64,000 nucleotides of DNA, taken from assembly GCA_963752155.1 (NCBI GenBank), contig CAVVXH010000008.1, forward strand, positions 32,001 to 96,000, in the 5' to 3' direction. The stretch comes from an uncultured Parachlamydiaceae bacterium (GTDB lineage Bacteria > Chlamydiota > Chlamydiia > Chlamydiales > Parachlamydiaceae). Both the position numbers and the translations under genes were made by a program. The notes below the pieces were generated by a model. That model had not been told where the DNA came from, searched no databases, and saw only the letters and a program-made list of their open reading frames with translations. Positions 23,724 through 52,644 of this stretch are shown here, one piece after another (position 1 is the first letter of the stretch; each line of letters starts with the position of its first letter).

Positions 23724-23791
23724 GCGAGTTATAAGGGCGGTCGCCTTTCATATTACTCATTACCATTCAACTGCTATGAGTAAGATGATAA
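23724..23791. mobile_element. Degenerate att site/arm remnant (outer boundary of the island stack)
   Basis: GCGAGTTATAAGGGCGGTCGCCTTTCATATTACTCATT...CTATGAGTAAGATGATAA aligns with 39625-39686. Confidence 0.75.
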
Positions 23792-24089
23792 GGGGTTAGA
23801 GTCTGCTTATGATTTCTCCTCAACTCTTTTCTCCATGAATATCTTTATCCTTAAAAGGCTTATTTCTCATCTGTTTTCAATGCAACGTCCACCACGCCAT
23901 TTACTTCAAACATGTCCATGAAGTGTTTATACATTTCTAGCCTGTCTTCTCCTCCGCTGGATGTCAAAAGCAACGCTTGGCCGTACTCTTCAATATCCTG
24001 TACGATTCATTCATGCCGGTAATAAGCTAGGATTACCCTATTGATGTCAGGCTTTCCGTAACCTTTATAAAACAATTCCTCTTCGCGGA

Positions 24090-24363
24090 TTATCCCAAAC
24101 AGGTCCTTCAATCGCTTTAATGACTACGTTTTCAAATTGGTTTATTTGTATTTCTTCTTTCAATTCATTAGGGTGATGCAAGTAAGCAAAAGAGAAGCCT
24201 TCTGAGATTTTCTCATGCACTCCTGTTTTGAATTCTTGATCAATGAAATTTGAAGTGTTCGATCTTTTTCCAATCTGTTAGAACTAAGCCGTTCTTGCTC
24301 ATTCCCTTCCGAATAATATTTTTCAAGAGCGTGATCTAATTTGTGTTGTTTTGATTTTGCCAT
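24090..24363 (-). pseudogene. Class I SAM methyltransferase remnant (internal deletion)
   Basis: YYSEGNEQERL...LEKDRT start, followed in another frame by GFSFAYLHHPNELKEEI...AIEGPVW. Confidence 0.55.
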
Positions 24364-24414
24364 TTTTGAACCTCTAATCGATATTTAAACGTTGCCACGC
24401 AGTGAAAGAGCCTA

Positions 24415-26460
24415 TTATTTGTTCAGCATTACTTGTTTTTCTTTTGCTTCATTTGCGTGCATTGTTACTCCTTCAGGGTCCATGTCATGAGAGCGTATAA
24501 CTGCACTGGAGGACTGTATTTCACCCAAAGAAATAGGTTCATAAGCACCTCCTAAAAACTGGGCTAAGAGCCACTCGCTATAAGCTAAATAACACATAAT
24601 ATTATTGAATTTCGTAATGCCATGTCCTTCATCAGGGAAAGAGAGATAGGTGACGGGTAGTTGCTTTTGTTGCATTTTCTCAAAAATCTGGTCGGATTCA
24701 GAAGCTGCAACTATAGGGTCATTAACCCCATGAACAAGTAACAAAGGTTTTTGAATTTTATCTACATGATTTAGAGGAGAACAGCTCTCTAAATAGGGAA
24801 TTTCATTCTCCTTATCTGGGTTGCCTCCCATACTTTTGATAAAAGCATTCTTTGTGAAGTACATCATTTTATCGGAAAGTGGAGATACAGGGAACTCCCA
24901 GTAAAACGGCACTCTATTTAAAACAGTTTTCAAATTTGAAGGACCACATATTGCAACGGCACAGGCAAATACATCTGGAGAAAAAGTAAGACTCGCTAAA
25001 GCCTCATAACCACCATAACTACCTCCAAAGACCGCAACTTTATCTTTATCGGCGATCTTTGAATCGATGCACCATTTTACCGCATCTAGAACATCTTGAT
25101 GTGCTTTTTTCCCCCACTGCCCATTACCAGCATTGACAAAGTCTTTTCCAAATCCGGAAGACAAGCGGAAATTTACGCTTAAAACAGCATACCCACGATT
25201 AGAGAGCCACTGATGATCTGGAGAATATTCATAAATATCGCGAACTTTAAAAGGACCTCCATGAGGAACTACGACTAAAGGAAGAGGTTTTGTAGGTCTG
25301 CCTCCTTGATCCATGTCCTTTGGCAGCGTTAAGTAACTTACTAGATTGAGACCATCATTAGAAGGAATGACTATGGGATACATCTTAGCTAAATTAGCAA
25401 GCTTTGGGAAAGAGTAAAGCTGATAAAGATTTTTTATTGGCCGATTGTACAGCCAATATTCAACACCTTGGTCCGGAATACTATTCTTTAAAATCCAGAA
25501 TTGATAATCACCTGAGTGGTCAAGAATATCGAAATTTACCCCTATCTTACTAGAAAGATAATTAATATCAGCTTTGATTCTTTCGTTAAGAGGATGAAGT
25601 TCTTGGTGTGTAAAGTAAGTAGAGTAGGCTACCGGCTTATTATTTTCAAAATAGACATCTATAATATCGCTTCGTTGGTCTTTTCCTAATAAAATCTCTG
25701 TACGAGTTACATCAAGAAAAATCTTTTTTAGTTGTGTTGTATCGCTCCCCCTATTATCTAAAAGATAAAGAGCATTTTCTTGATCATCAAATCGTAAACA
25801 TTCAGTATGAAAAGCATCTTCCGCAGAAACATTGAAAAGAACACCGTTCTTTTTATCTAACAATGTAAGAGAGCTATCTTCATTCATGCGCACTTTTACA
25901 ACTAAATTTAATTTGTTATCGAAAACAAAATTAATAAATTCATCGTTTTGATAGAACATTTTAAGAGAATCGTTTGCAAAATCTAGTAGGTAGAGATCGT
26001 GAAATTGGGGATTACGATTGTTAATACCAATAACTGCTTTAGAATCTGTTGTGCTGACATAAAATACCTTGGCATTAATATCTTTATATTCAACTGTAAG
26101 ATCCTTAATCTTATGAGAACCTAAGTCAACTGAATATAATCTAAACTGTCCAGTGCCATTAGTATCTTTAAGGAGGAGGATATTTTTATTGTTAGGAAGC
26201 CAATAAAACCCCTTAATTTCAGGTTCTTTAAAATCTGTAATTTGTTGTGCCCCTTCAAGAGAAAGTCCAGGAGTAATATAGAGATTCATCGTCCCTTCTC
26301 TGTCAGCTCCCACATAGGCCAAGCGATGAGAATCAGGACTGATCTTTATTGCCATACATGGAGGTTTTTTGAATAATTCTTCGCGAGGAATTAACTCGCC
26401 AGAGATCAGAGAACAAGGAATTAACAAATTAGCAAGGCCAAATAAAATTTTGTTTTTCAT
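24415..26460 (-). CDS. S9 family peptidase (acylaminoacyl/dipeptidyl peptidase)
   Basis: Signal peptide, HGGP, GGSYGGY, HGVNDP, FPDEGHG catalytic triad motifs. Confidence 0.92.
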   Translation of the reverse strand: MKNKILFGLANLLIPCSLISGELIPREELFKKPPCMAIKISPDSHRLAYVGADREGTMNLYITPGLSLEGAQQITDFKEPEIKGFYWLPNNKNILLLKDTNGTGQFRLYSVDLGSHKIKDLTVEYKDINAKVFYVSTTDSKAVIGINNRNPQFHDLYLLDFANDSLKMFYQNDEFINFVFDNKLNLVVKVRMNEDSSLTLLDKKNGVLFNVSAEDAFHTECLRFDDQENALYLLDNRGSDTTQLKKIFLDVTRTEILLGKDQRSDIIDVYFENNKPVAYSTYFTHQELHPLNERIKADINYLSSKIGVNFDILDHSGDYQFWILKNSIPDQGVEYWLYNRPIKNLYQLYSFPKLANLAKMYPIVIPSNDGLNLVSYLTLPKDMDQGGRPTKPLPLVVVPHGGPFKVRDIYEYSPDHQWLSNRGYAVLSVNFRLSSGFGKDFVNAGNGQWGKKAHQDVLDAVKWCIDSKIADKDKVAVFGGSYGGYEALASLTFSPDVFACAVAICGPSNLKTVLNRVPFYWEFPVSPLSDKMMYFTKNAFIKSMGGNPDKENEIPYLESCSPLNHVDKIQKPLLLVHGVNDPIVAASESDQIFEKMQQKQLPVTYLSFPDEGHGITKFNNIMCYLAYSEWLLAQFLGGAYEPISLGEIQSSSAVIRSHDMDPEGVTMHANEAKEKQVMLNK

Positions 26461-26759
26461 AACATCTCCGGCTTAGAGTCTCTTAAAATAAGCATTTTTG
26501 CACACGGTTCATAGGAAATTCAAGCAAATTCACTATCGAATTTAAGAAATGCTTCAGTGGTACTTCGAGCTCGATCAACGCCCTCTGCATCAGCATGTAT
26601 AGTCGAAGCCACTTGAACAAAGAGATTGGCCAATGGCATATCCACACCATCACAAATTAAACGCTTAATACTTGCTGCATAATCATTCTTCCAAGCCGGG
26701 TCAACTGGGAGTGGTGCTTGGGTCGGCCGCCCGGGAGTTGCGCTGAAAAACAAAGTTCT

Positions 26760-28246
26760 TCAATAAGAGTTTTCTGATTTATAAGCCGTAAGCCACAATT
26801 CGGCCTTTCGAATTTTGGGGATGATGGCACTTTCGTTTTTACTGAAAATTTTCATCAAAGCTAAAGTGCGGTAATTTGACGAAAATAAAGGTTGATGTTT
26901 TTGAAGAAAACGCCAAAAAAGACCATCCCATATCTCTGTCCACTCACCTTTAGGGTAGTTACTCATTTTTGTAATATAATTAGAAGAGGCAATATAAGGT
27001 TTAGTGACAATAGTGCCTCCATCGGCATATTGACTCATCCCAAATACATTGGGTACCATTACCCAGTCATAAGCATCTACAAAATTTGCCATAAACCATT
27101 TATAAATTTCTTGCGGTGAAATTTCTGTCAGCAATAAAAAATTCCCTAAAACCATCAGACGCTCAATATGATTGCAGTATCCGGTTTTTAAAACCCTTTT
27201 AATGATGGTGTCGATAGGTAAAATGCCAATAGCGCCTTTCCAGAACTTCTCAGGAATGCTCTCATGATGATTAAAAAAATTAAATGAACGTTGAAATGAA
27301 CCTTTAAAAATATAGGAAGCTCGTACAAATTCTCTCCAGCCCATAATTTGTCGCAAAAAGCCCTCCAGCGAATTTATAGGAATCGAATGTTTTTCAGCAT
27401 GATGGATGGCAGCTTGAATCACTTCAAGGGGAGTCAGAAGGCCAATATTTAATAAAGGGGAGAGCACGCTATGAAAAAGAAAAGAGTCTTCTTTTTGAAT
27501 AGCATCTTGATAGGCACCGAATAGTGGTAGTTTATTTTTTAAAAAAGTCTGAAGTGCCTCGTGAGCCTCTTTATGAGTTGTTGGATATAAAAAGGGAGAA
27601 ACCTCCCCAATAGCATCAGGAAATTCCCTTTCCACTTCTGCAATCACCTTTTCAATATATCGGTTTTGGCAAGGGAGAAACATAGAGGGAATAGGAAGAT
27701 CTTTAGGAATTTTTTTTCTATTTTCGATATCGAAGCTATATTTACCTCCGACTGGATTTTTGCCTTGCATCAGGATATCCAAGGTTTTTCTGTTGGTAAG
27801 CATAAAACTGGGCCATTGAATAATGCTCTTTATTACAAAAAAGGCCCTTAAGTCAAAGCTGGAATGAGATAAAGCCTGGTGCGGGATAGAAATAAATTTT
27901 CCACCCATATTTTTCCGCCCCTATCGTTAAGATCACGTAGAAGCCATTCATCTGCAAATTCAGCGACGTAAATAGTTTTGATATGCTTTTTACCCAGGAT
28001 ATCAAAAAAATCATCCCCGCTTTGCGAGATCTTTGGAAGGGATATAAAATTAATTTTGGTGCTGCTTGGGAAGCATTTCGGCATAACTGTGCATCGCAGA
28101 TCTTAAGGAGAACCAGTCTTTGTTTGTGAAATAGTTGGACTTTAAAAAAAAGAAACTCTTCCACAAGGTAAATGTGGCGTCCAGAGGCTAAGCAAGGATG
28201 GTGGTAGGAATAATTGGTCTGGAAATATGAGCGTAATATCCGTCAT
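26760..28246 (-). pseudogene. Cryptochrome/photolyase-related protein (DPRP/bacterial (6-4) photolyase-like), several frameshifts
   Basis: MTDITLIFPDQLF start at 28246, FHKQRLVL, GGKYSFD.ENRK, FHSVLSPLLNIGLL, GYCNHIERLMVLGN, VDAYDWVMVPNV. Confidence 0.8.
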
Positions 28247-28479
28247 GTTCTTACTATGATCCCACTAATCTAAGTCTTGAAGCATCGTTGGCTATCAACA
28301 ACTCCCCGGCCGGGTTATAGCATAATTTACCAGGATGTGGCAAGTCGCTTCGCAAAAAACGAATCTGCTAAAGCACATGCCCCATCAAGGACAACCGAGG
28401 TGATTGATTTTGATAATGTTTTGTCAATCTCTCAAAGACGTTCATAGGGAAATTCTCTTGTTTAAAAGCTGTGTTTCAA

Positions 28480-29186
28480 GCGGTGGGAAAAGAGCGTCGA
28501 GCCATTGAATGGCAAGAGCTTCTTCTTCTTAAAGAACAGTTTCAACTAAGCATGGGAGCTATTTGCTATCGTCTTAAAGATTTGGGAATCTTTTAAAGCG
28601 CCTTGCCATTGGTGCCTGACCTGATATTCTGACATTTGCCTACAATGATAACGTAACCTCCCAGGAGGGCAAATGTCAGAATGTCAGGTCTGGAACCAAG
28701 GCTAAACGTTACCTCTCAGAATTTAGTATCTTGTTATTAATTGAAAACGACGCTTTTTTCAGTTGCGTAAATCTTGGGGGTAAGGGACTGTGCAATAATA
28801 ACTTGTATGATTGGGCAACGCGAAAGCTCCCGTGGTTAAGCGATCGAAAGTGACCCCATATTATAATATGGGGTCACTTTCGATCGCTTAACCACGGGGC
28901 TTTGGCGCAGCCCAATCGTGCAAGTTATTGTTGCACAGTCCCTAACGTTTCAGCCTTGGTTCCAGACCTGACATTCTGACATTTGCCCTTTAGGAAGCAA
29001 TGTTATCGCATCGGCAAATGTCAGAATATCAGGTCTGGAACCAATGGCAAGGCGCGAACTTGTTATTTAGGAGAGCCGGGAATAGAAATTCCTTCAGAAA
29101 AAGATCATGCCTTTAACCAAATGCTGTTTCATGCTCTTGGTGAAGAATATATTGGGGAACCAAAAGCCGCAGAACTGTTAACTTGA
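28480..29186 (+). pseudogene. ImmA/IrrE-type (XRE-associated Zn peptidase) C-terminal remnant, interrupted by the palindromic element
   Basis: ELLLLKEQFQLSMGAICYRLKDLGI lies left of the element and EPGIEIPSEKDHAFNQMLFHALGEEYIGEPKAAELL lies right of it. Confidence 0.6.
28591..29074 (+). mobile_element. 484-bp nested palindromic non-autonomous element, copy 1
   Basis: Hairpin module A (about 28600-28703) and inverted A' (about 28952-29055); IR AGGGACTGTGCAA...TTGCACAGTCCCT; perfect 70-bp palindrome 28829-28898; near-identical inverted copy at 35140-35518. Confidence 0.85.
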
Positions 29187-29417
29187 CCTCAGTTATTTTT
29201 CGACTCCCTTATGAGATCGCAGTTTCTGATATCCTATTTGAATTTGCTCTCGAAAAACCTTTAAACGTTGGAGATTCAGATTGTTAGTCCTTAGCTAATT
29301 TTTCAATAACATTATTTCCATCTCGTCTTAAATTGCTGTAACAGTGTATAGTAAGTCTGCTACCTTCGTTTTTTTGCATATTTTCTTAATCATTAACCAA
29401 AACGAATCTTTGTAATC

Positions 29418-30401
29418 ATGAGTATTATTTCTGTCGATTCTCTGTCGAAAGAATTTCTTGTTCCAAAACGCAAGCATGGATTTTTTGGAAATTTAGCGTC
29501 ACTTTTTAAACGAGAATATGTAAAAAAGACCGCCCTTGACCGAATTAGTTTTGATATCAATGAGGGAGAATTGGTTGGGTTCATAGGCCCAAACGGTGCA
29601 GGTAAAAGCACAATGGTAAAAATCTTATCTGGCATCTTGGTCCCAAACAGCGGTAGTGTCAAAGTCTTGGATAGAATCCCATGGGAGCATCGAATTGAAA
29701 CAGTGGGCCAACTAGGGGTCGTTTTTGGACAACGTACACAACTGTGGTGGGATCTCCCTGTTATTGAGTCATTCGAGTTGCTAAAAGACATTTACAACAT
29801 TTCTGATAAGGAATACAAAACGACTCTTCATTCCCTCTCAGAAGTTCTTGAATTGTCAAAATTGATGCATGTGCCAGTCCGTCAATTGAGTTTAGGGCAA
29901 CGGATGCGCTGCGATATTGCCGCTTCACTACTGCACTCGCCCAAAATCCTATTTTTAGACGAACCGACAATAGGTTTAGATGCTGTCAGCAAGTTAGCAG
30001 TTCGCGACTTCGTTCGTCATCTTAACAAAGAACGTAACGTAACAGTTTTGCTCACAACGCACGATATGGATGATATCGAGTCTCTATGCAGTCGTGTGAT
30101 TATACTAAACGAGGGTCAAATTTACTTGGATGGTACATTGTCGACTTTGCGCAAAAAGTTGTCTCCTGAACGTCGACTGATTGTAGATTTGATTGACGAA
30201 AATGACACAGTATCTGACCCATATGCCATGCTTATTAAGCAAGAAGGACATCGCGTCTGGTTAAGTTTTGACCCAACAAAGATTACAACTACTGAATTGA
30301 TTACACGCATTACCTCGAAACATTCTATAAGTGATTTGTATGTCGAAAATCCGTCTATACAGGAAATTATCGCAAAATTTTACAGAAATACGAATCTATG
30401 A
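29418..30401 (+). CDS. ABC transporter ATP-binding protein
   Basis: GPNGAGKST, LSLGQRMR, FLDEPTIGLD, TTHD. Confidence 0.95.
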   Translation: MSIISVDSLSKEFLVPKRKHGFFGNLASLFKREYVKKTALDRISFDINEGELVGFIGPNGAGKSTMVKILSGILVPNSGSVKVLDRIPWEHRIETVGQLGVVFGQRTQLWWDLPVIESFELLKDIYNISDKEYKTTLHSLSEVLELSKLMHVPVRQLSLGQRMRCDIAASLLHSPKILFLDEPTIGLDAVSKLAVRDFVRHLNKERNVTVLLTTHDMDDIESLCSRVIILNEGQIYLDGTLSTLRKKLSPERRLIVDLIDENDTVSDPYAMLIKQEGHRVWLSFDPTKITTTELITRITSKHSISDLYVENPSIQEIIAKFYRNTNL

Positions 30402-31186
30402 AGGCATATCTTGCGATACTTTATGCCCGTATGGCAACGCTCTTTCAATACCGTGGTGCTGCTTTCGCTGGGGTGGCTACGCAAATATTTTGGGCCATTA
30501 TTAAAACTATGATTCTTACAGCGTTCTATGCTCAGAATTCTGTTTTACAGCCTATCACCCTAACTCAAGCTATCACATTCATATGGCTAGGACAGGCCTT
30601 ACTGGCATTATTACCATGGAACATCGACAAAGAGCTTGAAGCGCAGGTCAAAAACGGCAATGTATCTTATGAACTTGTACGGCCTATAAATCTTTATTCC
30701 CTTTGGTATGCCAGAGCTTTTGCTATAAGAACAGTCCCAACTATTATGCGTTGTATACCAGTATTCATGGTTGCAATACTGTTTTTCGGGCTATCTGCAG
30801 TTTCTTGGGCTGCTTCACTGACTTTTGGAATTTCACTAATTTTGGGTGCTTTCCTGTCGGCTGCTATCACTACATTAATTATCATTAGCCTTTTTTGGAC
30901 TATTTCAGGCGAAGGTATTCAGCGTCTGATGCCTCACGTAGCTCTCCTTTTATCTGGCTTAATCGTACCTTTACCACTATTTCCTGAATGGCTTCAACCT
31001 TTTCTAAACCTTCAGCCCTTCAGAGGGGTCATAGACATTCCTAGCAGGCTATACACTGGAGTAATTCCAATTCAAGAATCTTCTTATTATTTAGGATTCC
31101 AACTGCTTTGGATTTTGATTTTGGTTGGAGTTGGTAGGTGGCTAATGAGTCGCGCTTTAAGACAAATTGTAATTCAGGGCGGATGA
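30398..31186 (+). CDS. ABC-2 family permease
   Basis: Six TM segments, GNVSYELVRP, C-terminal IQGG; ATGA overlap. Confidence 0.9.
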   Translation: MKAYLAILYARMATLFQYRGAAFAGVATQIFWAIIKTMILTAFYAQNSVLQPITLTQAITFIWLGQALLALLPWNIDKELEAQVKNGNVSYELVRPINLYSLWYARAFAIRTVPTIMRCIPVFMVAILFFGLSAVSWAASLTFGISLILGAFLSAAITTLIIISLFWTISGEGIQRLMPHVALLLSGLIVPLPLFPEWLQPFLNLQPFRGVIDIPSRLYTGVIPIQESSYYLGFQLLWILILVGVGRWLMSRALRQIVIQGG

Positions 31187-31189
31187 TTC

Positions 31190-31981
31190 ATGGACAAGCT
31201 TCGACTTTTTTTCAAACTAATCGCAATTTCATTCAAGTCTCAAATGCAGCACCGCGCTTCTTTTTTGATGCTGATTTCTACATATTTTTTGTCGACATTT
31301 ATTGATATTATTGGGATATGGGTACTTTTTGACAGATTTGAAATGGTTCAAGGATGGTCATTAAAAGAAGTAGCAGTCATTTACGGAATTATGCATATAG
31401 GATTTTCAATTCCTGAAGCTTTTGCAAGAGGTTTTGATAATTTTGGATTGTTAATCAGAAATGGCGATTTCGACAGAGTATTGCTCAGACCTCTTGGTAC
31501 TTTATTCCAAATGGCTTCTCGAGAAATTCAATGGATGCGTCTTGGGCGTTTATTGCAAGGGTGCATCATTTTGGCGTGGGGCTGCTTAGAACTTCAATTT
31601 TCTTTGAGCTCTCTACATATCCTGATTATATTTTTAGCTATCTTAGGTACCGCAGCAGTCTTTTATGGACTTTTTATTCTGCAAGCTACGTTGACATTCT
31701 GGACTACTGAAACTCTAGAATTAATGAATATCACTACTTTTGGAGGTCTTGAGGTTGGACAATACCCTATCAGCATCTACAATCCTATCTTGCGAGGATT
31801 TTTTACTTTTATTATCCCTTTGGCATGTGTGGCCTATTACCCAATTGCCACTGCATTGAATCATGAAACAATTCCTATGTGGCTTGGGACTATTGCTCCG
31901 TTGGGTGGCCTTGTATTCCTTTATTTTTCCATCAAGCTATGGAAACTGGGCGTTCGACATTACAGTTCAACAGGAAGCTAG
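31190..31981 (+). CDS. ABC-2 family permease (second subunit)
   Basis: GDFDRVLLRP, QYPISIY, C-terminal YSSTGS. Confidence 0.9.
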   Translation: MDKLRLFFKLIAISFKSQMQHRASFLMLISTYFLSTFIDIIGIWVLFDRFEMVQGWSLKEVAVIYGIMHIGFSIPEAFARGFDNFGLLIRNGDFDRVLLRPLGTLFQMASREIQWMRLGRLLQGCIILAWGCLELQFSLSSLHILIIFLAILGTAAVFYGLFILQATLTFWTTETLELMNITTFGGLEVGQYPISIYNPILRGFFTFIIPLACVAYYPIATALNHETIPMWLGTIAPLGGLVFLYFSIKLWKLGVRHYSSTGS

Positions 31982-32146
31982 CTTCTGAAAACCAAGTATC
32001 TTCATCTATTAGAGGCAAAATCTCTTCAACATGTTTTGTTTCTAAGATTTTTGCTTCGACCTCCAATGAACCTAGACAACAAAGTGCCTTTATAACTAAT
32101 CGAATTTTTAACAAAAACACCCAATCAAGTCAATTGGGTTTTAATA

Positions 32147-32707: not shown

Positions 32708-32730
32708 AAAAGCTTACATTAAAATTTACT

Positions 32731-32748
32731 TGTGCGTTATAACGCACA
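32731..32748. promoter_or_regulatory. Perfect 18-bp palindromic operator candidate
   Basis: TGTGCGTTATAACGCACA between the divergent regulator and operon; a half-site ATAACGCACA follows near 32776. Confidence 0.65.
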
Positions 32749-32803
32749 TCTGCTAAAATAGGCTAATTGTACAAGATAACGCACAAAATTTATAGGAGAA
32801 AAT

Positions 32804-37006: not shown

Positions 37007-37007
37007 T

Positions 37008-43752: not shown

Positions 43753-43856
43753 AAATGATAAAATTAGCTTGATACAACATTTTATTTCAAAATGGGGGTT
43801 TGGATGGTAGATGCATCTACCAATAGGCCCATAGAGGAAATCCTGCTGCACAGTTA

Positions 43857-44807
43857 TTAGAATTCTTGAACGGAATTCCAATCATCAATTGTGCTTTGAA
43901 TTACAGTTTTTAACTGCTGAAAAAGTTGAGGTCTCTCTGGAGGAGAATCTAGAAGTTGTAGAATATTCACAAAATCTGTGATTAAGGCTGAGCGAAACAA
44001 GTCTTTGGGAAGTATTCCTCCAAAATCGGTGTACCCTTTAATTAATGCCTCCATCTTGCAAGGGAACTGTTCTCTATGGCGCATTAAAATAGCAAAATCA
44101 AGGATTCCTATGCCTGCATGAGCAAATTCCCAATCCAAGACAAACACTTTTTTTGCGTGGTAAAGCAAATTGACAGGTTTAAAATCAGAATGAGTGAGGC
44201 TGACGTTATCTTCAACGATTGGAAAAAATTCTTTATTTTCCTGCATGAATGAAATGGTCTTATCAGCTAACTGATCTCCCAGCCTCTGTCTGACAAATTT
44301 GCCTTTAGAAATAATTGAGAAGGCTTCTTCAAAATAAGGGTTTGATCCTCTTTTAAAGACATGGGAGATGGTCATGCCATCCCCAAATAAACCTGCTTGC
44401 GGAAGCTTGAAACTATGAATAGTGGCAAGTACATGTCCCAATTCGTACGACAAGAAATTTCCACTTTCGATAGCTACTTCGGAAATGTGGCTGCCTGAGA
44501 TAAATTCAAAGATAGAGTATGCCCAAGGTTCATGAGATTCATTGGCGTATATCAGTTTAGGAGTTGAAACTTGACCATCGATGAGCTGATGAATAACTCT
44601 TTCTGTTTTACAGTGAGTTCGGTCTCTTGCATAAAGCCTCAGCACAAACTTGTTGTCGTCTATTGTAAATTTGTAAGTTGTATTGCGAGCCCCTCCAGAA
44701 AGAATTCCCCATTCATCTAGCCTATTACAACCAAAAGCCTTACGCACCAAAGCTAAAAGTTCTTCATGATTCAAATAGATATTTTGGATGCTTCTCTCTA
44801 CATTCAA
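43857..44807 (-). CDS. Aminoglycoside phosphotransferase (APH)/kinase family protein
   Basis: [26 protein letters not shown]. Confidence 0.85.
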
Positions 44808-45148
44808 ATCTCTACTCCTTTTCTAGCTACTGCCATAATGTGAGCACTGGCTCCCAGTATTGATTCCTCAAGAGTGAGCACTTCTGATAAAAATTTCCCA
44901 ATTTGCTTTGGAGGAAAGTTGACTACAGCAATCACTTGTTTACCAATAAGCTCTTCTTTGCAGTAATGATGGGTTATTTGAGCCGAAGAACGTTTTCTTC
45001 CTAGATCACCAAAATCGATTTCGAGTTTGTAGGCTGGCTTGCGCGCTTCTAGGAAGTCTTCAACACTTACAATAGTTCCAACACGAATATCAACCTTGAG
45101 GAAATCGGCATATTGGAGCTGTTGTGTCATTTCTTTTTTAGCTTCCAT
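44804..45148 (-). pseudogene. csaA: CsaA-like tRNA-binding protein with a replaced C-terminus
   Basis: [12 protein letters not shown]...SSAQIT...[16 protein letters not shown], followed by [17 protein letters not shown], which resembles a methyltransferase C-terminus. Confidence 0.7.
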
Positions 45149-45168
45149 AATCTAATCCTTCAAATTGT

Positions 45169-45795
45169 CTAACGGCTGTTAGACTTTTTTGCTTTGGTTT
45201 TTTTCGGCTTCTTTTGGCTTTCGAGGACAGTACTTAATTCAGCTTCAAACTGGGGGGTGGGTAATGCCATTTTGAAGTTTGTTATTGCCTTTCCCTCTCT
45301 GTGATACAGGTCATTTTCAATCCAGATTGTGAGCATGCTACGGCTCCAGCCATGCTCTATTGCCTTAGAGGCATACCAAAGACGCTCATCATTATCTTTT
45401 ATTTTTTGAAGAAGTAGGATGTTATGTCCCCAGGGGATGCTAAAAATAGGCAAGGATTCAAATTGTCGCACAGCTTGTGCGACTTTTTCATAAGCGATAA
45501 AAAATGCCTTCATCCTAAACATGTTGGCTCTTGAAAACCCTTCTATCCCAGGGAACTCATTTTGGAGGTCTTTAGCTACTCTTTCCAGCACTTTGCTACC
45601 CCAGCCTTCCCTCTCCTGTTTTTCAATTATATCCTTACCAATCTCCCAATAAAGCTTGATCAATTCACTGTTAACTGCGACTGCTGCCTTGATCTGGGCT
45701 GATCGAATTTTAGCCTTCAGTGATGTGATGAATTTGGTATATTCAGCAGGGGATACATCTCCCTTTTTGATGGCTAGGCTGGACTTTTGAGACAT
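45169..45795 (-). pseudogene. YhcG/DUF1016 family protein lacking the PD-(D/E)xK domain
   Basis: AQIKAAVAVNSELIKLYWEIG...IPWGHN...GWSRSML...GKAITNF...LPTPQ jumps straight to the C-terminal tail. Confidence 0.75.
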
Positions 45796-46153
45796 GAAAA
45801 AACTCTATTAAAAATGAAGCCAATCATAGTTGATGGAAAGCAAAAAATCAAGATAAGGATGCCTGAGGATTTGTCCGAGGATTTTTGATCTTATCTCATT
45901 TCTGGAGATGGAAAAGGGCCACTTATCATTTTGAAATCTGCACGGGATGTCTTTTGTAAATTGATGCCAGTTCTCTGAGAGTTTTTTGTGCTTTAGCACC
46001 TTCTAAAGCTAATTTTGATGCAGCTCCATATTTTTTTTTCTTATCGTCGCTTGACAATCACAATTTTTATACAGCACTTTTTGAAGCATAAGAGTTAACC
46101 CAAGTTTTAGCGTGTTTTTACTAAAAGCAACTAAAAAAAAGGAGAAAACACAG

Positions 46154-46370
46154 ATGACTGAAGAATGCCCCAAAGACTACATGACCCCTACGCAACTTGT
46201 CAAAGACCCTTGTTGTCCATTCAGCAAGCGAGCTTTGTACTGGCACATTTGGAGAGCAGGAATCAATGGCTTAGCCCCCGCAATTTATCGTGTAGGCTGA
46301 AAAGTGATACTGTCGCGCTCGGGTTTTATAGCCTGGCTGACAAGTCATCAAAGGAAGCCAAAATTAATCC
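46154..46370 (+). pseudogene. Excisionase/AlpA-like small DNA-binding protein with an in-frame TGA
   Basis: YMTPTQL...FSKRALYWHIW...NGLAPAIYRVG*KVILSRSGFIAWL; GGAG RBS. Confidence 0.6.
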
Positions 46371-46459
46371 TGTTATATCTGAAACTCTTTCAAGAGCAGA
46401 AGAAGCGCAACATCCTAATTCAGACAGGATTGTTAAGAGACAGGGGTTTACCATCTCTA

Positions 46460-46795
46460 TTAGGCTTTTCTAGCAAATCTCTGGTCTGAGAGATTGCCTA
46501 ACTGTGTTTTCCACCAAAGAAGGTGCTGTTGGGTATTTCGCGCATTTTTAGGTTTTGAAGGGAGAACTTTTGCAATGTAGCGGTCAATGAGCTCATCAAG
46601 TTTGTTTTGCTTGGAAGTCATTGTAGGAAAGTACATGCCTTGTCTACGCTTTGTTTCTTCTTGAGCCTTCCAAGTTCTAGCTTCCAATAGGGTAGGAAAG
46701 CTTTTTGATTGAGGAGGGAAGCCATCGTTTAATCTGACTTGAGCCCTGTAGCTCTTCGTACCATCTTTATTTGTGATTTTTTGTATACCACGCAT
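46460..46795 (-). pseudogene. Integrase 2, N-terminal fragment
   Basis: MRGIQKITNKDGTKSYRAQVRL...SKSFPTLLEARTW...LIDRYI...HLLWWKTQLG, with no catalytic domain; lies next to the att copy. Confidence 0.8.
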
Positions 46796-46931
46796 GTCAG
46801 CACCTTTTGGTTTGCTGCTGCGTGCTGTGCTTTTTAGTGAATCTGTGTGCATTGTGTGTGCATCGACAGTTTTTTCGTTTTTAGAACGATCCACAAAATC
46901 ACACCTAACTTGTTGTAGAAGAATAGGTTAG

Positions 46932-47115
46932 AAAAGTGGGGCAACTTGGACTTGAACCAAGGACCAGCGGGTTATGAGGGCGGTGGTCCGCCATATAACC
47001 CAATACCATCCAACCGCTATGAGTATGATGGTAAAGGATTTATGACTAAAATGCTACTGGAATTTATTGGATTTTGATGGTGCAATGGGTTCATCGTTGC
47101 ACCGCTAGTGCACCG
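46932..47115. mobile_element. att site: 3' 42 bp of tRNA(CAT) (46937-46978) plus conserved arm region
   Basis: Identical 42-mer to the tRNA 3' half; downstream region homologous to 39637-39768; TGCACC pair at 47098/47109. Confidence 0.92.
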
Positions 47116-47120: not shown

Positions 47121-48167
47121 TTAAGAAGGTCTGCGTTTCTTCGGGCTTTTCTTAGGACTGTTCGAGTCAATTTGTTTAACTTCCTTAATAGCCTCGATAA
47201 AGTGCCTCTCAACAGGAGACGGAAGTTCGTTTAATTGCTGCCGGTATTTAGCGTATTCAGCCTTTGCCTTATCAAGAGCATTTTGATGGCTAATTTTACC
47301 TGCATGAGTGAGAATATCACGGTCACTGGTGCGGAGAAAATCATCTAGCTTGACAATCCAGTCTTTCATATACATAGGTTTTCGACTTAAAGCTTGTAGC
47401 TCTGCAAAATCGAGATACATGGCAACAATTAGATTAAGAGTTTCAAGTTCATTGTTGTTTAAATAATTTTTTGCAATTCCAATATCTGGGACACGTAAAT
47501 TATTGCCTGTCCAAGAGGTGAGTCCCATATTCGGCTTTGTAGAGTCTGCTCGAGTGTGGATAATTTCAGCCGCAGTATGCCCGTGAGCAGCCCAGTGCAT
47601 CTTGTTTTGTACAATGGCAAAAAACTCCTCAGACAAATCTGAACGTGGATTGTAATCAATACTTGTAGCATAAATATCAAGAACCTTTCGCCAAAAGACT
47701 TTTTCTGACGAACGGATGTCTCTAATGCGTGCCAATAGCTCATCAAAATAATTACCACCACCAGATTGCTTTAATCGCTCATCATCTAAAACAAATCCTT
47801 TGATAAGGTATTCTTTCAATCGTTGAGTGGCCCAAATGCGAAATTTGGTGCCTCTATGAGAGCTGACTCTGTATCCTACGGAGATGATCACATCTAAGTT
47901 ATAAAAGTCTATTTGCCGTGTGACTTCTCGTGATCCTTCGGCTTGAACTGTCCGGAATTTCCGGATAGTTGAATCTGCAGAGAGTTCCCCTTCGCTAAAG
48001 ATATTTTTTATATGCTCTGAAATCGTTCTCTTATCTTTGTCAAACAGCTCGCTCATTTGAGCTTGACTTAGCCAAACAGTCTCATCAAGAAGACGCACCT
48101 CAACTTTAGTAAGGCCATCTTCGGTTTGATAAAGAATTAGATCACTATCAGGCACGTTAGTTTTCAT
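47121..48167 (-). CDS. Virulence RhuM family protein
   Basis: ETVWLSQAQMSELF, YNLDVIISVGYRV.S.RGTKFRIWAT, YFDELLARIRDIRSSEK. Confidence 0.92.
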   Translation of the reverse strand: MKTNVPDSDLILYQTEDGLTKVEVRLLDETVWLSQAQMSELFDKDKRTISEHIKNIFSEGELSADSTIRKFRTVQAEGSREVTRQIDFYNLDVIISVGYRVSSHRGTKFRIWATQRLKEYLIKGFVLDDERLKQSGGGNYFDELLARIRDIRSSEKVFWRKVLDIYATSIDYNPRSDLSEEFFAIVQNKMHWAAHGHTAAEIIHTRADSTKPNMGLTSWTGNNLRVPDIGIAKNYLNNNELETLNLIVAMYLDFAELQALSRKPMYMKDWIVKLDDFLRTSDRDILTHAGKISHQNALDKAKAEYAKYRQQLNELPSPVERHFIEAIKEVKQIDSNSPKKSPKKRRPS

Positions 48168-48533
48168 TTAAAAGAACTCCTAAATTTTCTCTGACTGGGG
48201 ATACCGATCATATCTCCCTTACTGCATTATAGAGTCGAACTAGCGTCTTTGATGTTAGAGAGATTTTACTTAAAAAGATACCGAATTTTATTGGATTTTA
48301 TGGCACAACAGGGTTCTTTGTCGCCAATGCAGCATCAAAGGCACATGATTAAGTACTCTACCATACATACATTTTGATGAGGCGACTAGATGCATTTAGC
48401 ACTTTTGACTGGAAAAAGTTATCTTTTCCAAATAGAATGATTTCAAAATTTAACCTGAAAAAGCTAATTGATGGAATTATTCTTTTGTAGACTGTGTCGG
48501 ATTGAGGAACATAGCTTTTCTAGAGTAGGAGAT

Positions 48534-49152
48534 ATGATGACTAAAAAAATAGGTATTTATCTAGCAGGAAGTATAAAAAAAGGGCATGAAAATCCTCAAG
48601 AATCGTTTTGGACAGAAAGTGATATAGCTCTGATACAAAATAGCTTTCAAAAACGCGAAGTCATTTTTTTAAATCCTGCTTTCCGCATGGACAACCTTGC
48701 AGACCAGTATTCTGTATTTGGCAGAGATATGACTCAAGTCTTTTGTAGTCATGTGGTATTTGTCGATGCTCGAGACAGAAGAGGTCTTGGCGTAGGAGCT
48801 GAAATGATGTGGGCCAAAATGAATAAAATTCCCGTTGTTACTTGGGCTCCAAAAGACACTCACTATAATAAGACCAAAACGACGATTTTAGGAGTGGAAG
48901 TGAACGATTTTATACATCCATTTGTTTACGGATTGAGCGATAAAATCATTGATAGGCTAGAGGAAGGGGCCCTATGGATAGAAAAAATGTTGTCTGATCC
49001 ATCTATTGAGATTAAAGGGCTCAAGCACATTCAGGCTGCCCATGCAATATTACCAAGAAAGTCAGTTGCCAATTGATTTACCCATGCGTGAGATTTTAAG
49101 TTGTGAGACCTTTAACAACCGATTGACTAGACCACTTGCTGAAGTACATTAA
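48534..49152 (+). CDS. Nucleoside 2-deoxyribosyltransferase-like protein (apparent +1 frameshift near 49040)
   Basis: IYLAGSI...FLNP...FGRDM...GVGAEMMWAK.NKIPVV. Confidence 0.6.
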
Positions 49153-49164
49153 ATTAGAGGGAAA

Positions 49165-49509
49165 ATGAAGAAGTTTTTAATTTTAGCGTGTTTGGCCTTA
49201 ACTCAAGCCCAAGCATTAGAATATGAAGTACAGTTGGAAAATGATCAGGTTTGTGTTTCTCGAGTAGTGATAGAGCCAAAAGAAGAGATTGGTTTGCATC
49301 GTGATGCAGTACCTCAAATTATTGTAGGGTTACGAGGTGGAACCATCACTAGATTAGAGGCAGATGGACGAGAAGTTGACGTTGAATTTCCAACTGGAAA
49401 GGCTGTGTATCGCCCTGTTGATCCAGAAGATGAGTTGCACAGAAGCGTGAATAGATCAAATGCTCCTATTGAAATTATCATTATTCAGATGAAAAACAAT
49501 TCAAATTAA
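49165..49509 (+). CDS. Secreted cupin-domain protein
   Basis: Signal peptide; ENDQVCVSRVVIEP...GLHRD...LHRSVN. Confidence 0.7.
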   Translation: MKKFLILACLALTQAQALEYEVQLENDQVCVSRVVIEPKEEIGLHRDAVPQIIVGLRGGTITRLEADGREVDVEFPTGKAVYRPVDPEDELHRSVNRSNAPIEIIIIQMKNNSN

Positions 49510-49511
49510 GG

Positions 49512-50136
49512 ATGTCTCAGATGTTTCGAGTCTTTTTATGTATCTTTCTTTTGGGGAGTAGTTTTATGCATGCAGAAGTCACAGAGATGATCGAACTAGA
49601 CATTATTCCATATGAAAAATTGATCCAAGGCGATTTCGATGCTCTGCAGACACTAGATAAGGCATTACATGAAAAAGGGATTGTTGGTGTTCGAGGAGTG
49701 CCTGGTTATAAAGCAAAATACGAACAATTCATTAATGCAGCTAGAAGATTTAGTGCCCTTCCCGAAGACGTAAAAGAGAGCTATAAGCCAAACAGAGCAC
49801 TTGGGGAGACTTTTCTTGGATATGAAATGGGAAAGGAAAAATTTTTGAGACCAGATGGCACTTGGATAGTCGATGACCTAAAAACTTCCTACTATGCATA
49901 TATTCCTGATAGCACTAAAAACAAATGGCCTTTAGAAGTTAACTTGCAAGAGCCATTTGAAGCTTTAGGGCAATTAATGGCAGACACTGGCGAATTGGTT
50001 ATGCATAAAATTGGGCTTTTAGGGAGTGTTACAGGCTTTGAGTTAGAAGAAGATTCTCGGCTAGGTCGGATGCTCTATTATCGTAAGAGTGACAACAATG
50101 AAAATCCTCATTGGTGTGGTGCTCATTTTGATCATG
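49512..50136 (+). pseudogene. 2OG-Fe(II) oxygenase (IPNS-like), 3'-truncated
   Basis: GRMLYY...WCGAHFDH (HxD), then an abrupt junction with opposite-strand primase remnant. Confidence 0.7.
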
Positions 50137-50720
50137 CCAATCAAGCTTCCAAGGTAGACAAAGAGAGAAGCTACAAAATAGTCTTCAGCTATTTGCATCT
50201 GCTTGGCATTTCCTTGTATCCAATCAGTAAGTTCTTGAGGTAAAGTTAATGTAGGGCAAGGCAAAACCTCGCTTAAAAGCTCCTTAATGGCCTCAGGCGG
50301 GCTGTTAAAAGCAGGTGGTCCATCAACATTCTTTTCAAAATACTTGAATGCATCCAAGGAATTGCTGTTCACGTGATCTTCAAACGCAATCCTTAGATAT
50401 TCTGAATGCGGCTCATCAATGGGGCCAAAACCATCCCATTCAGGTGGACATTTTGAATGGGCTAGAATCCAATCCACAAAATCATCACCCTTATTCTCGA
50501 TAGAAAGTTTACAGACTGTCAGCTTTGCACTTGGACAAGCTTTTTGAACCTCCTGAGCTACTGCCTCCATATACTTGTGGCCAGGGTTATCATTGTCAGG
50601 GATAAGCACGAATTCGCAAACATGTCTAAACTTTGCTAATATCGCCCAATCCGCATACTGGGCTTGACTTGATCCCATCATTGAGGTCAGTGCCGATAAG
50701 CCTAGATGATGCGCTTCGGC
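50136..50720 (-). pseudogene. TOPRIM primase plus start of DUF3987-like domain (replication remnant)
   Basis: LGLSALTS.MGS...ADW...LIPDNDNPG...KGDDFVDW; LPQELTDWI...QMQIAEDYFVASLFVYLGSLIG. Confidence 0.7.
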
Positions 50721-51354
50721 GGCTACCAACTGAGCGTTAGGTCTGCCTTCTAAAAGCTCTCTTGCCAGTCCTTGGAGGATTTGAGCGACTAGGTGGATAT
50801 CTATAGGGTAGGCTGTAGCAGGCGCAATTCGACTGATTTTTCCTGTATGCTGATCAACTCTCATCTCCTCAGGAAAGATTTCTTCGATAAGGCCTCTTTC
50901 CTCTTGAGACAATTGTTCCCTTAGATAAGCTGTAAAACTTCTAAGAGAGCGTATTTTAGATGATCTGCGACCTTTTTTTCTTTTCATTTCTGACGCTATC
51001 CTTTCTAGGTAAACCTCTAGAGTTTCATTAGAGTAAGGCTTCTGGATAATGCGTTTCATGTAATCTTGGATGTCAAGATTGAGTTCAAGCCATTCCTCAT
51101 AATAGGGCTTAGCCAACTCCTTTGCTGCTTCGACCACAGGAGATGTACGATTAAATTTAGGAAAGTGATCGTATAAATCTGCAAATATCCAACAAAAGAG
51201 CCTCTTTACGAGGCCAAGGATCAATATTATCATCTCCAAACCCAGGTGTTCCTGCTATGCTAAGACCTGACGATTTCCAGATTTCTTCTTTTCGTTTCAT
51301 CTGAGATAAGAAATCTCGGAGAACGTCTTTTAAACGTTCAAGCTGGTTGCTCAT
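50720..51354 (-). pseudogene. Hypothetical protein downstream of the integrase, frameshifted and fused to the primase remnant
   Basis: ORFs 51157-51354 and 50061-51239 overlap in different frames. Confidence 0.4.
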
Positions 51355-52418
51355 TCATTGCCCCGATGTTAAGATTTTCTGTAATGCCCTCAGAGTATTT
51401 TCTAACGAGATCGGCTTCGAGATGGGTATAACGCTGAAGCATTTGTAAAGTACGATGTCCCATTGCTGTTGCAAGCTCAAGGTTAGAAGCACCCTGGCGG
51501 GCTGCCAGAGTGGCAAAGCTGTGTCTAATGTCATGAAAGCGTAGATTAGTGAGTTCTGCTCGCCTAAGAGTTTCTTGCCATGGTTTCTTGATGTCAATTT
51601 CGCCAAATGCCGTTTTGCTGGCAAAGATCACTTTTTTATTGGGTTGCTTGATCTCATGAAGGCGTTTTAATTCCTCAACGACCTCATCAACCAAGGGTAC
51701 ACTTCTTGGTCGGCCATTTTTAGTTTCTTTGAGATGAGCAAGTTGATTCTTAAAGTCATGGTCCCACTTGAGTTGCAAGATTTCTCCTTGCCTCATACCT
51801 GTTGTGATAGCCATCAGAACAATGCAATATAGATAGGGGTTGCGACTCTCTTTGCAGGAAATGATCAGACGAGATGCTTCATCTTCAGAAAGAATGCGAT
51901 CTCTTCCTTTGGATTCTTTGAGCTTGATTAGGTTAAAGCATGGGTTTTCATCTATCCAGCGAAGACGGCGACAAGCATAGGTTAAGCAAGAAGATAGAGC
52001 GGCAATATAGCGGTTGACGGTTGCAGATGAACGCTTCTTTCCATTAAGCATTGGCGTTTCCACCAAAAGCTGCCGTTCCTTAGAAAGAAGCTCAGGTGTA
52101 AGATGGACAAGCGCATAGCCAGCAAGTCGCTCTTTCCAGTAATTCATATGACGAATAGCGTCTTTTTTTGCTCGCAAATGCTCTAATGCGCCATCAGAAA
52201 TATAGCGTTGAACAAGATCAGCAAAAGTGCGATGGGTGTTGACTCTTTCAAACTTGAACTGTCCCATCTTGATCTGGCGTTCAACTTCTTGTGCCCAATC
52301 TTCAGCTTCTTGTTTGCGATCCAAATGATTGCAGACTGTAGGGATAGCCTTTGATACGGACAACTGCTCGCCAGTGACTAGTTCCGTTCTTATTTTTACG
52401 CTTTTGTATAGAAGCCAT
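51338..52418 (-). CDS. Tyrosine recombinase/integrase 1 (+1 frameshift at 52341-52343)
   Basis: TGMRQGEI (R), ETKNG (K), FHDIRH (HxxR), MGH, RYTH; true N-terminus MASIQKRKNKNGTSHWRAVVRIKGYP is in another frame; gene starts about 150 bp from the tRNA 3' end. Confidence 0.9.
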
Positions 52419-52570
52419 TGCTCAAACCTCATGTGTTAATGGTTCGAGCGGCTGGATGGTGTGTGTTAAGATTGTTTTTCGTTGCACCGCCATTGCACCG
52501 CAAGCCAAATTTTAGCTTGAACAATATTATTGAATCAAGCTAAATCCTGCTCACAGCTAATGGAAAAAAG

Positions 52571-52644
52571 TGGGGCAACTTGGACTTGAACCAAGGACCA
52601 GCGGGTTATGAGTCCGCTGCTCTAACCGACTGAGCTATTGCCCC
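52571..52644 (-). tRNA. tRNA with CAT anticodon (probably tRNA-Ile2; elongator Met not excluded)
   Basis: GGGGCAATAGCTCAGTCGGTTAGAGCAGCGGACTCATAACCCGCTGGTCCTTGGTTCAAGTCCAAGTTGCCCCA cloverleaf; G1-C72 paired, so not an initiator. Confidence 0.93.

Follow-up and report, generated by a model that had tools for sequence, protein, structure and literature searches.

The window, by which we mean the whole 64-kb stretch of DNA analysed here, belongs to a metagenome-assembled genome (MAG) of 3.13 Mb in 22 contigs, with 80% completeness and 4% contamination. MITE-like repeats are plentiful in this genome. The genome has four tRNAs with the anticodon CAT. An intact tRNA(CAT) is followed in the window by units labelled E1, E2a, E2b and E3 with increasing distance from the tRNA:

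52570..52644, minus strand: intact tRNA(CAT), the integration target, either elongator Met or Ile2 (ARAGORN; Rfam, 70.1 bits)
52566..52612: att core copy 1, which starts at C32 in the anticodon loop, reaches the tRNA 3' end and takes in five trailer bases (exact 47-nt repeat)
52433..52565, minus strand: E1 integrase-side arm (P'), with TGCACCGC twice, at 52483 and 52494 (sequence comparison)
51338..52432, minus strand: E1 tyrosine integrase (PF00589, 4.8e-30)
50061..51239, minus strand: E1 backbone fusion remnant, a 392-aa ORF made of pieces of two genes of relatives
48468..50243, plus strand: E1 cargo, namely a 202-aa protein of no assigned family, a cupin-like protein and a DIOX_N-only oxygenase piece (profile search)
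47121..48167, minus strand: RhuM-family gene, PADLOC defence candidate PDC-S05, the last E1 gene (PF13310, 3.9e-117; PDC-S05, 1.7e-155)
46979..47115, unstranded: E1 distal arm (P), with TGCACCGC at 47098 (sequence comparison)
46932..46978: att core copy 2, at the E1/E2a junction (exact 47-nt repeat)
46487..46931, minus strand: E2a integrase-side arm and 103-aa N-terminal integrase stump, running from 46795 to 46487 (tblastn)
43857..46473, minus strand except for the first ORF: E2a cargo, namely a 102-aa ORF of no assigned family (plus strand), DUF1016_N (PDC-S02), a CsaA-like tRNA-binding protein and an APH-family kinase
43555..43781, minus strand: E2b integrase-side arm, with TGCACCGC at 43745, and 37-codon integrase stump, running from 43668 to 43555
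40027..43682, unstranded: E2b cargo, namely DUF1016_N (PDC-S02), a class I/II aminotransferase, a YheO-like regulator, VOC/glyoxalase, EVE and MarR
39637..39767, unstranded: E2b distal arm (P), with TGCACCGC at 39761 (sequence comparison)
39590..39636: att core copy 3, with neither integrase nor integrase-side arm to its left (exact 47-nt repeat)
23798..39589, unstranded: E3 body, without backbone genes (profile search), holding Metallophos, HAD, a NUDIX-methyltransferase fusion, a Metallophos_2 fragment, an epimerase fragment, an AAC(6')-like GNAT, AlaX, HTH-cupin, an ABC-2 transporter, a frameshifted photolyase-like gene and peptidase S9
23723..23797, unstranded: outermost junction, with 62 nt of distal arm and 13 nt of core in which the anticodon reads TAT instead of CAT

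The initial annotation had reported the 3' 42 bp of the tRNA as a perfect repeat at 39595, 46937 and 52571, and all three copies are present, with none expected from 100 shuffles. The true length of the repeat is 47-48 nt rather than 42 nt, because the five trailer bases belong to it. The 47-nt core has three copies in the 3.13-Mb genome, all at the tRNA(CAT) locus, so the 42-mer is not scattered genome-wide. This copy number, the arms and the integrase remains refute the view that the repeats, whether as fragments of tRNA pseudogenes or as a dispersed repeat, have no tie to integration. That view has the abundance of MITE-like repeats on its side and nothing further, while every core has arms beside it, together with integrase genes or stumps that all point the same way, and tRNA(CAT) lies directly upstream in 17 of the 44 loci that encode relatives of the integrase; we consider its probability negligible. 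A degenerate fourth copy had been proposed near 23724. A core remnant does lie there, but as 13 nt of the anticodon stem/loop (23723-23735) that align, together with the adjoining arm, at 84% to 39624-39692, and not as a degenerate 42-mer; further left only 9 of 34 bases match the core register, the remainder of the core being lost. Since the outermost junction retains just 13 nt of core, the outer end of the stack is only provisional.

The E1 integrase starts by homology at 52418 and is about 360 codons long. Compared with a 93%-identical copy (L059) and a metagenome contig, it carries a +1 frameshift at about 52341-52347, near codon 26, and an upstream ATG at 52432 opens a 364-aa frame whose first 27 residues are foreign. 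R214, K238, H300 and R303 occupy conserved columns in an alignment of 16 integrases; H326 and Y334, assigned by motif, would complete the catalytic set R-K-H-R-H-Y. In the fusion ORF, residues 12-185 correspond to a conserved gene that relatives have next after the integrase, and residues 172-370 match the Toprim part of a DUF3987 primase-helicase of about 690 aa whose helicase domain is absent here; Toprim_2 and primase profiles gave weak hits. The oxygenase piece overlaps this remnant, and 48394-50136 recurs in a different context on a 6.9-kb groundwater contig. The RhuM gene has a counterpart with 86% nucleotide identity in a related genome (G012:C3).

The middle units retain integrase stumps only. 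The E2a stump matches the 16 integrase queries at up to 55% identity (tblastn, E down to 3e-29) and represents a different subfamily from the E1 integrase, to which it is 22% identical; its arm and stump region is 86% identical at the nucleotide level to a locus in a genome of another family (G039:C57). The 37-aa E2b stump reaches 68% identity to the integrase queries, and next to it, at 43.7 kb, the expected att core and E2a distal arm are absent. With exact cores on both sides and nothing but integrase stumps, E2 as a whole (39637-46931) has the structure of a cis-mobilizable element (CIME). The same structural definition fits E3, which has one exact core, one 13-nt core and no integrase of its own; none of the 16 integrase queries detected a remnant beside 39590. 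Pieces of E3 have homologs with 66-84% nucleotide identity on other contigs of a same-genus genome (G001), in which the flanking core genes are 72-80% identical.

The cargo families listed by the initial annotation (GNAT, APH, NUDIX, HAD, VOC, EVE, ABC, AlaX, DUF1016 and RhuM) were all recovered. Its statement that cargo persists while backbones are deleted holds for the loss of integrase and replication genes, but it goes too far for the cargo itself, as the photolyase-like gene is frameshifted and the Metallophos_2 and epimerase genes are fragmentary.

The arms are conserved as well. The E1 P' arm is 74% identical to 43564-43781 and, across 67 nt, 94% identical to G012. The distal arms at 23736-23797, 39637-39767 and 46979-47115 are homologous to one another (81% between the E1 and E2b copies) and show 78-90% identity to arms adjoining att copies in three related genomes (G011, G012 and G014), the E1 arm being 86-90% identical there. 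The 8-mer TGCACCGC occurs five times in the 64 kb against 0.6 expected, each time inside an arm, and is a candidate integrase-binding motif.

Related genomes carry arrays with other cargo at the same site. At least two copies of a 31-nt core were found in 39 of 73 genomes of the family, while a reversed-pattern control gave zero. Intact elements in relatives comprise the integrase, a conserved gene of no assigned function, a CHC2 zinc ribbon and a DUF3987 primase-helicase (RepB_primase in some), and their cargo includes RM and AbiE. Neither same-genus genome contains any E1 or E2 DNA apart from att. The first, G001, has the tRNA on a contig with neither an integrase of this family nor a partial core, and the second, G002, has a different integrase stump at the site; relatives sharing the same gene order without att copies were thus not encountered.

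These data show the hallmarks of an accretion array: direct repeats of the tRNA 3' part bound the units, with an intact tRNA at one end; a tyrosine recombinase lies at the tRNA-proximal end of E1, with stumps in E2a and E2b and none in E3; conserved arms with repeated candidate integrase-binding motifs flank the core; and the site has different contents in related genomes. At this locus, tyrosine-integrase elements that target the tRNA have accreted in tandem, and 23723-52612 very likely holds the remains of at least four of them, likely inserted successively into the 3' part of tRNA(CAT). Repeated site-specific integration by related tyrosine integrases, as first suggested, is borne out by att cores, arms with a shared 8-mer, stumps and differing contents in relatives. 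The comparison of the locus to a gene-capture array did not hold in the sense of an integron, with its IntI, attI and attC: the integron-integrase model scored 40 bits against a cut-off of 265, and the multi-gene units are bounded by tRNA cores instead of attC.

An assembler could in principle have chained single elements of different strains through the shared core, and the source is a MAG in 22 contigs with incomplete recovery and some contamination, as given above, of which no sequencing run compared contained more than 17% of the sampled E1 words. Against this, many independent genomes have arrays of this type on large contigs (G011, 2.26 Mb; G074, 2.67 Mb; G075, 2.59 Mb; and G006), the stump at 43.7 kb lacks any core, which chaining could not produce, and the core, at 47 nt, falls short of the usual length of reads and assembly words. 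We therefore hold such an artefact to be very improbable.

The order in which the units arrived is less firmly established. The three integrase starts (52418, 46795 and 43668) share one orientation, as noted initially, all being on the minus strand and pointing away from the tRNA, and the integrase remains do shrink outward, from about 360 codons (frameshifted) to 103 aa, to 37 aa where att is lost, to none at 39590. The description of the stack as age-ordered stands insofar as this loss is monotonic in the window, and a newest-inside, oldest-outside order is likely; a strict chronology is undated, and relatives are mixed. Among 11 arrays in relatives, five show a gradient, three are flat, one is uninformative and two (G075 and G082) are contrary, with the more decayed integrase nearer the tRNA. 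GC contents of 40.8, 40.0, 38.9 and 38.1%, compared with 38.4% for the genome, form a trend that lies inside the genome SD of 2.8%.

A real but non-chronological stack, whose units arrived together as a co-excised composite or whose newcomers entered internal or distal att copies, is the less probable reading, though a serious one. It agrees with the two contrary arrays, with internal junctions that resemble complete attP sites with an arm on either side, and with one slot in G065 that holds two full integrases and no att between them; co-mobilisation is also discussed for neighbouring islands in Dehalococcoides (PMC3146451). The three cores, moreover, are identical despite the near-total loss of two integrases, which is expected only with deletion rather than point decay, or with core homogenisation. 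The successive order is favoured by the monotonic loss in the window, by the same direction in five of the seven relatives' arrays with differing slots, and by the absence of E1 and E2 from the same-genus genomes, in one of which (G001) E3 genes have homologs.

In the mechanism that we propose for successive integration, an incoming circle would carry an attP made up of distal arm, core and integrase-side arm. Upon recombination with the tRNA, the element's copy would rebuild the tRNA and the displaced core would end up at the far end. Later arrivals would mostly enter at the tRNA-proximal site and shift older units outward, and deletions would afterwards strip the integrase and replication genes. 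The stack is probably immobile by its own means now, because its only long integrase is frameshifted and the neighbouring replication gene is a fusion stump. Among the contigs searched (contigs only, from partial relatives), no excision product was found. Exact cores and arms would still permit excision, given a related integrase in trans. As integrase-less blocks keep exact cores and candidate binding arms, any incoming relative's integrase could move them, and tentatively, with the balance tilting against it, the tRNA(CAT) locus may be a family-wide, still-working exchange platform of environmental chlamydiae, at which integrase-less cargo is excised, reshuffled and exported by the integrases of incoming relatives.

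In streptococcal ICEs and IMEs, site-specific accretion reportedly yields tandems at the 3' end of a target gene, in which CIMEs, integrase-less att-flanked units, adjoin a unit that has an integrase. Unlike these, the units in the window have no detected relaxase, oriT or type IV secretion genes (no such Pfam family among 36 ORFs scanned between 23.7 and 52.6 kb), and they do not qualify as ICEs or IMEs. Within the chlamydiae, the island Pam100G of Protochlamydia amoebophila UWE25 presumably lies at a tRNA-Gly gene. Pam100G is a genomic island between short direct repeats, but is a single 100-kb element with F-like conjugation genes and 17-bp repeats, in contrast to the stack seen here (PMC548262). 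The suggestion that the present elements are undescribed in chlamydiae was overstated, as an 11.3-kb island that varies between strains and has its integrase near tRNA-Met, PnaD_GI4 of Protochlamydia naegleriophila Diamant, was published in 2016 (PMC5010888). The account given of PnaD_GI4 there treats it as one island and describes no att repeats, arms or tandem structure, nor a distribution across the family; frameshifted mobility genes are noted in the five variable islands of that strain, and another island of the species has a photolyase-like gene, as does E3 (PMC5010888).

Prochlorococcus tycheposons are tyrosine-recombinase elements at tRNA genes with primase/helicase modules and cargo, and they share partial tRNAs, fragmented integrases and stacked units with the present locus (bioRxiv 10.1101/2020.12.28.424599). 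Their layout of integrase, primase/helicase and cargo at a tRNA is found in relatives, while the window keeps only a stump of it; the host here, unlike theirs, is an obligate intracellular member of the Chlamydiota, and the likeness is one of organisation. The ssrA islands of Dehalococcoides also lie in tandem, and direct repeats of a small-RNA gene's 3' end bound each of them; integration modules are present in some and lacking in others, and the authors discuss them as possible cis-mobilizable remnants (PMC3146451). The target of these islands is a tmRNA, the repeat is 20 bp and the recombinase is a CcrB-like serine recombinase (PMC3146451), whereas here they are a tRNA, a 47-nt core and a tyrosine integrase. 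Att-bounded tandem pile-ups are well known from other bacteria, and the principle is already known.

Chlamydiae are strictly intracellular, and their gene gain is still debated, with attention mostly on plasmids and one conjugative island. Here, more than half of the family genomes sampled have one and the same tRNA gene as a recurrent target of small integrase/primase-helicase elements. The cargo includes candidate phage-defence genes (RhuM and DUF1016; RM and AbiE in relatives) and enzymes of drug-modifying type. The defined att core, arm motif and integrase family might become an integration tool for genetically intractable chlamydiae. If the exchange platform proved true, it would amount to an integron-like trade of defence and detoxification genes among obligate intracellular bacteria in shared amoebal hosts.

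The feature is genuine: a decayed accretion array of integrative elements targeting a tRNA(CAT), clearly bounded on three sides and truncated at its outer end. The source genome is a MAG. We refer to the units as E1, adjoining the tRNA, E2 (E2a and E2b), and E3, the outermost.

Features of the array, from the tRNA outward (minus strand)
52570-52644, minus strand: intact tRNA(CAT) (ARAGORN and Rfam)
52433-52528: integrase-side arm of E1
52418: homology-supported start (ATG, MASIQKRKNKNG...) of the proximal integrase, int1
50061-51239: 392-aa ORF, a fusion stump
46979-47115: distal arm
46795 to 46487: E2a integrase stump, 103 aa, at most 55% identity, E 3e-29 (tblastn)
43666-43781: counterpart of the E1 integrase-side arm
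43665 to 43555: E2b integrase stump, 37 aa, at most 68% identity (tblastn)
39637-39767: distal arm
23736-23797: distal arm
23723-23735: 13-nt core remnant

A tRNA-Arg(TCG) lies 170 nt to the right of the tRNA(CAT) (ARAGORN, Rfam), and Rfam found two tRNAs and no other family over 20-56 kb of the window. The initial annotation had described the 42-bp 3' part of the tRNA as perfectly repeated at two further sites, and the exact 42-mer was indeed found at 39595, 46937, and 52571; 100 shuffles gave 0 matches. The exact repeat grows to 47-48 nt once 5 tRNA trailer bases are included and is confined to these three places in the whole assembly (3.13 Mb, 22 contigs, 80% complete). On the tRNA it begins at C32 in the anticodon loop and continues to the 3' end, an arrangement that we take to be the classical anticodon-loop type of integration site in tRNAs. 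The degenerate fourth copy proposed near 23724 stands as the 13 nt of core plus an adjoining 62 nt of arm (84% identity to 39624-39692), but not as a decayed 42-mer; in the 34 bases left of 23723, nine positions match the core by manual count, which is chance level. The anticodon CAT reads TAT in this remnant. A core variant sharing the TAT change on a contig of a same-genus genome (G001:C196) was ruled out as an ortholog, having no arm homology.

The genome has four CAT tRNAs, of which two identical initiators flank one elongator-type gene on another contig (G000:C21:8003-8258), while the remaining one is targeted by the island. As the target scores slightly closer to tRNA-Ile(GAT), it may be a lysidine tRNA-Ile2, although the Met versus Ile2 scores are not decisive.

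Integrase remains were sought by tblastn with 16 queries, the window's own and 15 from relatives. Besides the full gene, matches fell in three places, one of them consisting of short artefacts from reading through the core at 39.6 kb. With stumps of 103 and 37 aa and no integrase-like sequence beside the 39590 core, the series read initially (near-full length, about 110 aa, about 35 codons, none) is borne out. The frame of the proximal integrase is broken after codon 26, with an extra base in a C-run at 52341-52347. A gene in another MAG (locus L059) that is 93% identical is open throughout, and a contig from an air metagenome has one letter fewer at 52347. An upstream, out-of-frame ATG at 52432 rejoins the main frame, giving a 364-aa ORF with foreign first 27 residues which keeps all catalytic residues (R214, K238, H300, R303, H326, and Y334). 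The extra base may be a genuine mutation or may have been introduced in assembly.

As no core adjoins the stump at 43.7 kb, the 7.3-kb "second element" resolves into two former units with a deleted junction, E2a at about 43.8-46.9 kb and E2b at 39.6-43.8 kb. The E2a stump is only 22% identical to int1 and belongs to a different integrase subfamily. Together with its arm (46487-46978) it has 86% DNA identity to a locus in a different chlamydial family (G039:C57), which exceeds the 72-80% of flanking core genes within the genus and thus suggests a recent transfer of this stump and arm between chlamydial families. The best plasmid match to the integrase was 36%, on a Legionella plasmid (tblastn), and the best phage match 32%. 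Kinship to chlamydial plasmid integrases was rejected, as there was no chlamydial record among the 15 listed of 2686 matching plasmid records, nor a chlamydial genus among the top ten organisms tallied for these tblastn matches.

Outward from the tRNA, each unit runs from integrase-side arm through integrase and cargo to a distal arm abutting the next core. The three distal arms are 79-91% identical to each other and 78-90% identical to sequences adjoining att copies in three other genera (G011, G012, and G014), while the two integrase-side arms share 74% identity. The octamer TGCACCGC occurs five times in 64 kb versus 0.6 expected, and all five copies (39761, 43745, 47098, 52483, and 52494) lie inside element arms, making them candidate arm-type integrase-binding sites of the E1/E2b type. 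By eye, the arm that goes with the other integrase subfamily (46840-46880) seems to have TGTGCAT-type repeats instead. A 240-nt stretch without an intact ORF (23863-24101) has 81-84% identity to copies in G001:C43, G002:C124, and G012:C95, the last 1.2 kb from an E1-type arm, and three further copies in the source genome; it resembles a small, frameshifted gene that moves with these elements.

Units at this tRNA in relatives carry four backbone genes, namely the integrase, a conserved protein of 340-445 aa with no Pfam family, a CHC2 zinc-ribbon ORF, and a DUF3987 protein of about 690 aa or a RepB_primase-DUF3987 protein. The 392-aa ORF of the window matches the second of these at residues 12-185 (56% to L059) and the Toprim region of DUF3987 proteins at residues 172-370, and the helicase domain is absent; the replication module is thus lost even from the youngest unit. 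All cargo families named in the initial annotation were found. By NCBIfam/PADLOC, the GNAT is AAC(6')-like but below the family cut-off, the tRNA-binding protein CsaA-like, the editing protein AlaXM-like, RhuM the defence candidate PDC-S05, and both DUF1016 genes PDC-S02. The proposal that cargo persists while backbones are deleted holds for the backbones but only partly for the cargo, since a photolyase-like gene is split (homologs in G039 and G001 span 26753-28289), a Metallophos_2 gene is reduced to 85 aa, and an epimerase lacks its N-terminal half.

Two inverted clusters of MITE-like palindromic repeats (28591-29074 and 35140-35518; 96-100% mutual identity) bracket a 6.1-kb block of ABC-2 transporter, HTH-cupin, AlaX, GNAT, and epimerase-fragment genes. 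The repeat units of the clusters match roughly 60-300 distinct places in the source genome, many near 100% identity, and in tens of copies in same-genus genomes.

E1 and E2 DNA is missing, the core excepted, from both same-genus genomes (G001 and G002), while several E3 genes have G001 homologs on other contigs at 66-84% nucleotide identity, beside 72-80% for the flanking core genes (SHMT, ClpP, and UPF0158). G001 was dropped as an empty-site (attB) reference, as its tRNA contig has only 914-2446 in common with the window and both flanks are otherwise rearranged. A broader test used 11 arrays with a full tRNA in relatives, picked for several copies on one contig and related to each other.

Longest stop-free integrase stretch (aa) per slot, from the tRNA outward, in arrays of relatives
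G066: 452 / 319 / 97 / 49
G074: 451 / 356 / none
G045: 451 / none
G080: 360 / 94
G011: 237 / pieces / none
G065: 364 / 357 / 370 / 354
G006: 359 / 363
G021: 441 / 421
G048: none
G075: none / 153 / 139 / none
G082: 181 / 262

A gradient was seen in five of the 11 arrays, three were flat, one was uninformative, and two were contrary. Given how the arrays were chosen and their mutual relatedness, this is a tendency and not a statistic. The age order initially proposed for the stack draws support from the loss of integrases, the absence of E1 and E2 in the same genus, and the five arrays; the flat arrays lend it none, and the two contrary ones contradict it. GC content by segment also changes monotonically, but the trend is small and lies well inside the noise of the genome. 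After the first insertion the tRNA-proximal site is no longer a bare attB, and internal junctions have arms on both sides, so that entry at other att copies and co-transfer of composites are possible.

The 31-nt core (at most 3 mismatches) was matched in 62 of 73 family genomes, with at least two copies in 39 (the source genome included), and the reversed-pattern control gave 0 in every genome. Single-contig arrays have up to five copies, spread over 62 kb in G065. Since some occur on contigs of megabase size, arrays are not peculiar to fragmented bins. Two genomes, G073 and G074, have 13 and 10 copies, those of G074 on both strands over 0.86 Mb of one contig, which points to rearrangement among att copies or to more than one target gene. 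Across species-representative genomes, the integrase family occurs in MAGs labelled Parachlamydiaceae, Waddliaceae, Simkaniaceae, Anoxychlamydiales, and Neptunochlamydia, and in a few labelled Verrucomicrobia or Acidobacteria. Among the 44 best loci, tRNA(CAT) is directly upstream of the integrase in 17 and 2.7 kb off in one, tRNA-Lys(TTT) is present at six, and the remaining 20 loci contain no complete tRNA. At L074, L075, L084, L086, L090, and L100, the integrase adjoins tRNA-Glu/tRNA-Lys(TTT) pairs, not tRNA(CAT), and these six of 44 loci suggest a second target specificity inside one integrase family. Contigs from four sequencing runs (lake, groundwater, sludge, and air) carry separate E1 modules at 90-99% identity, and at most 17% of sampled words of 46800-52700 were present in any run searched. 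Joints near att in these contigs have sides of 20-23 nt, too short to trust for circles either way.

Left of 23.7 kb, a search with 17 att regions of relatives gave no further att or arm remnants. Its only find was a recurrent Metallophos-like gene at 11666-12174. A 185-aa Metallophos_2-like gene at 11710-12267 has 69-83% protein identity to genes that directly follow the distal arm within elements of G006, G004, and G014, and could be the trace of an older unit that lacks att, some 12 kb beyond the left boundary first drawn. Same-genus genomes also differ over the 20 kb left of the array, where older remains may lie. Within 4600-22000, DNA homologs are nearly absent in the two same-genus genomes, and genes are split or partial (UPRTase, 7104-7722; PPDK, 7897-10353; AcetylCoA_hyd_C only; FAD-oxidase_C only). 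The region may represent an older part of the island or additional plasticity, and frameshifts from assembly could account for some of the splits. On the right, a 625-aa ORF adjoining the tRNA-Arg (53342-55219) has a DDE_Tnp_1_assoc/ISAs1 N-terminal-like segment at residues 427-507 and no family match elsewhere.

Arrays of this kind are already known. At ssrA in Dehalococcoides, PMC3146451 describes tandem islands flanked by repeats of the 3' end, some of which lack an integration module and are considered there as cis-mobilizable. For Protochlamydia naegleriophila Diamant, PMC5010888 tabulates an integrase island near tRNA-Met (PnaD_GI4), and its authors report frameshifted mobility genes among the variable islands of the strain. 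Our literature search found no account of tandem arrays at tRNA(CAT) in Chlamydiota, with the supplements of PMC5010888, which may detail PnaD_GI4, lying outside it, and nothing relevant in the accessible portions of a pangenome paper (PMC8242063) and a plasmid paper (PMC7846284). To the known kind the present array adds a defined core and arm motif, an integrase/primase-helicase backbone, and tRNA(CAT) as a hot spot across the whole chlamydial family.
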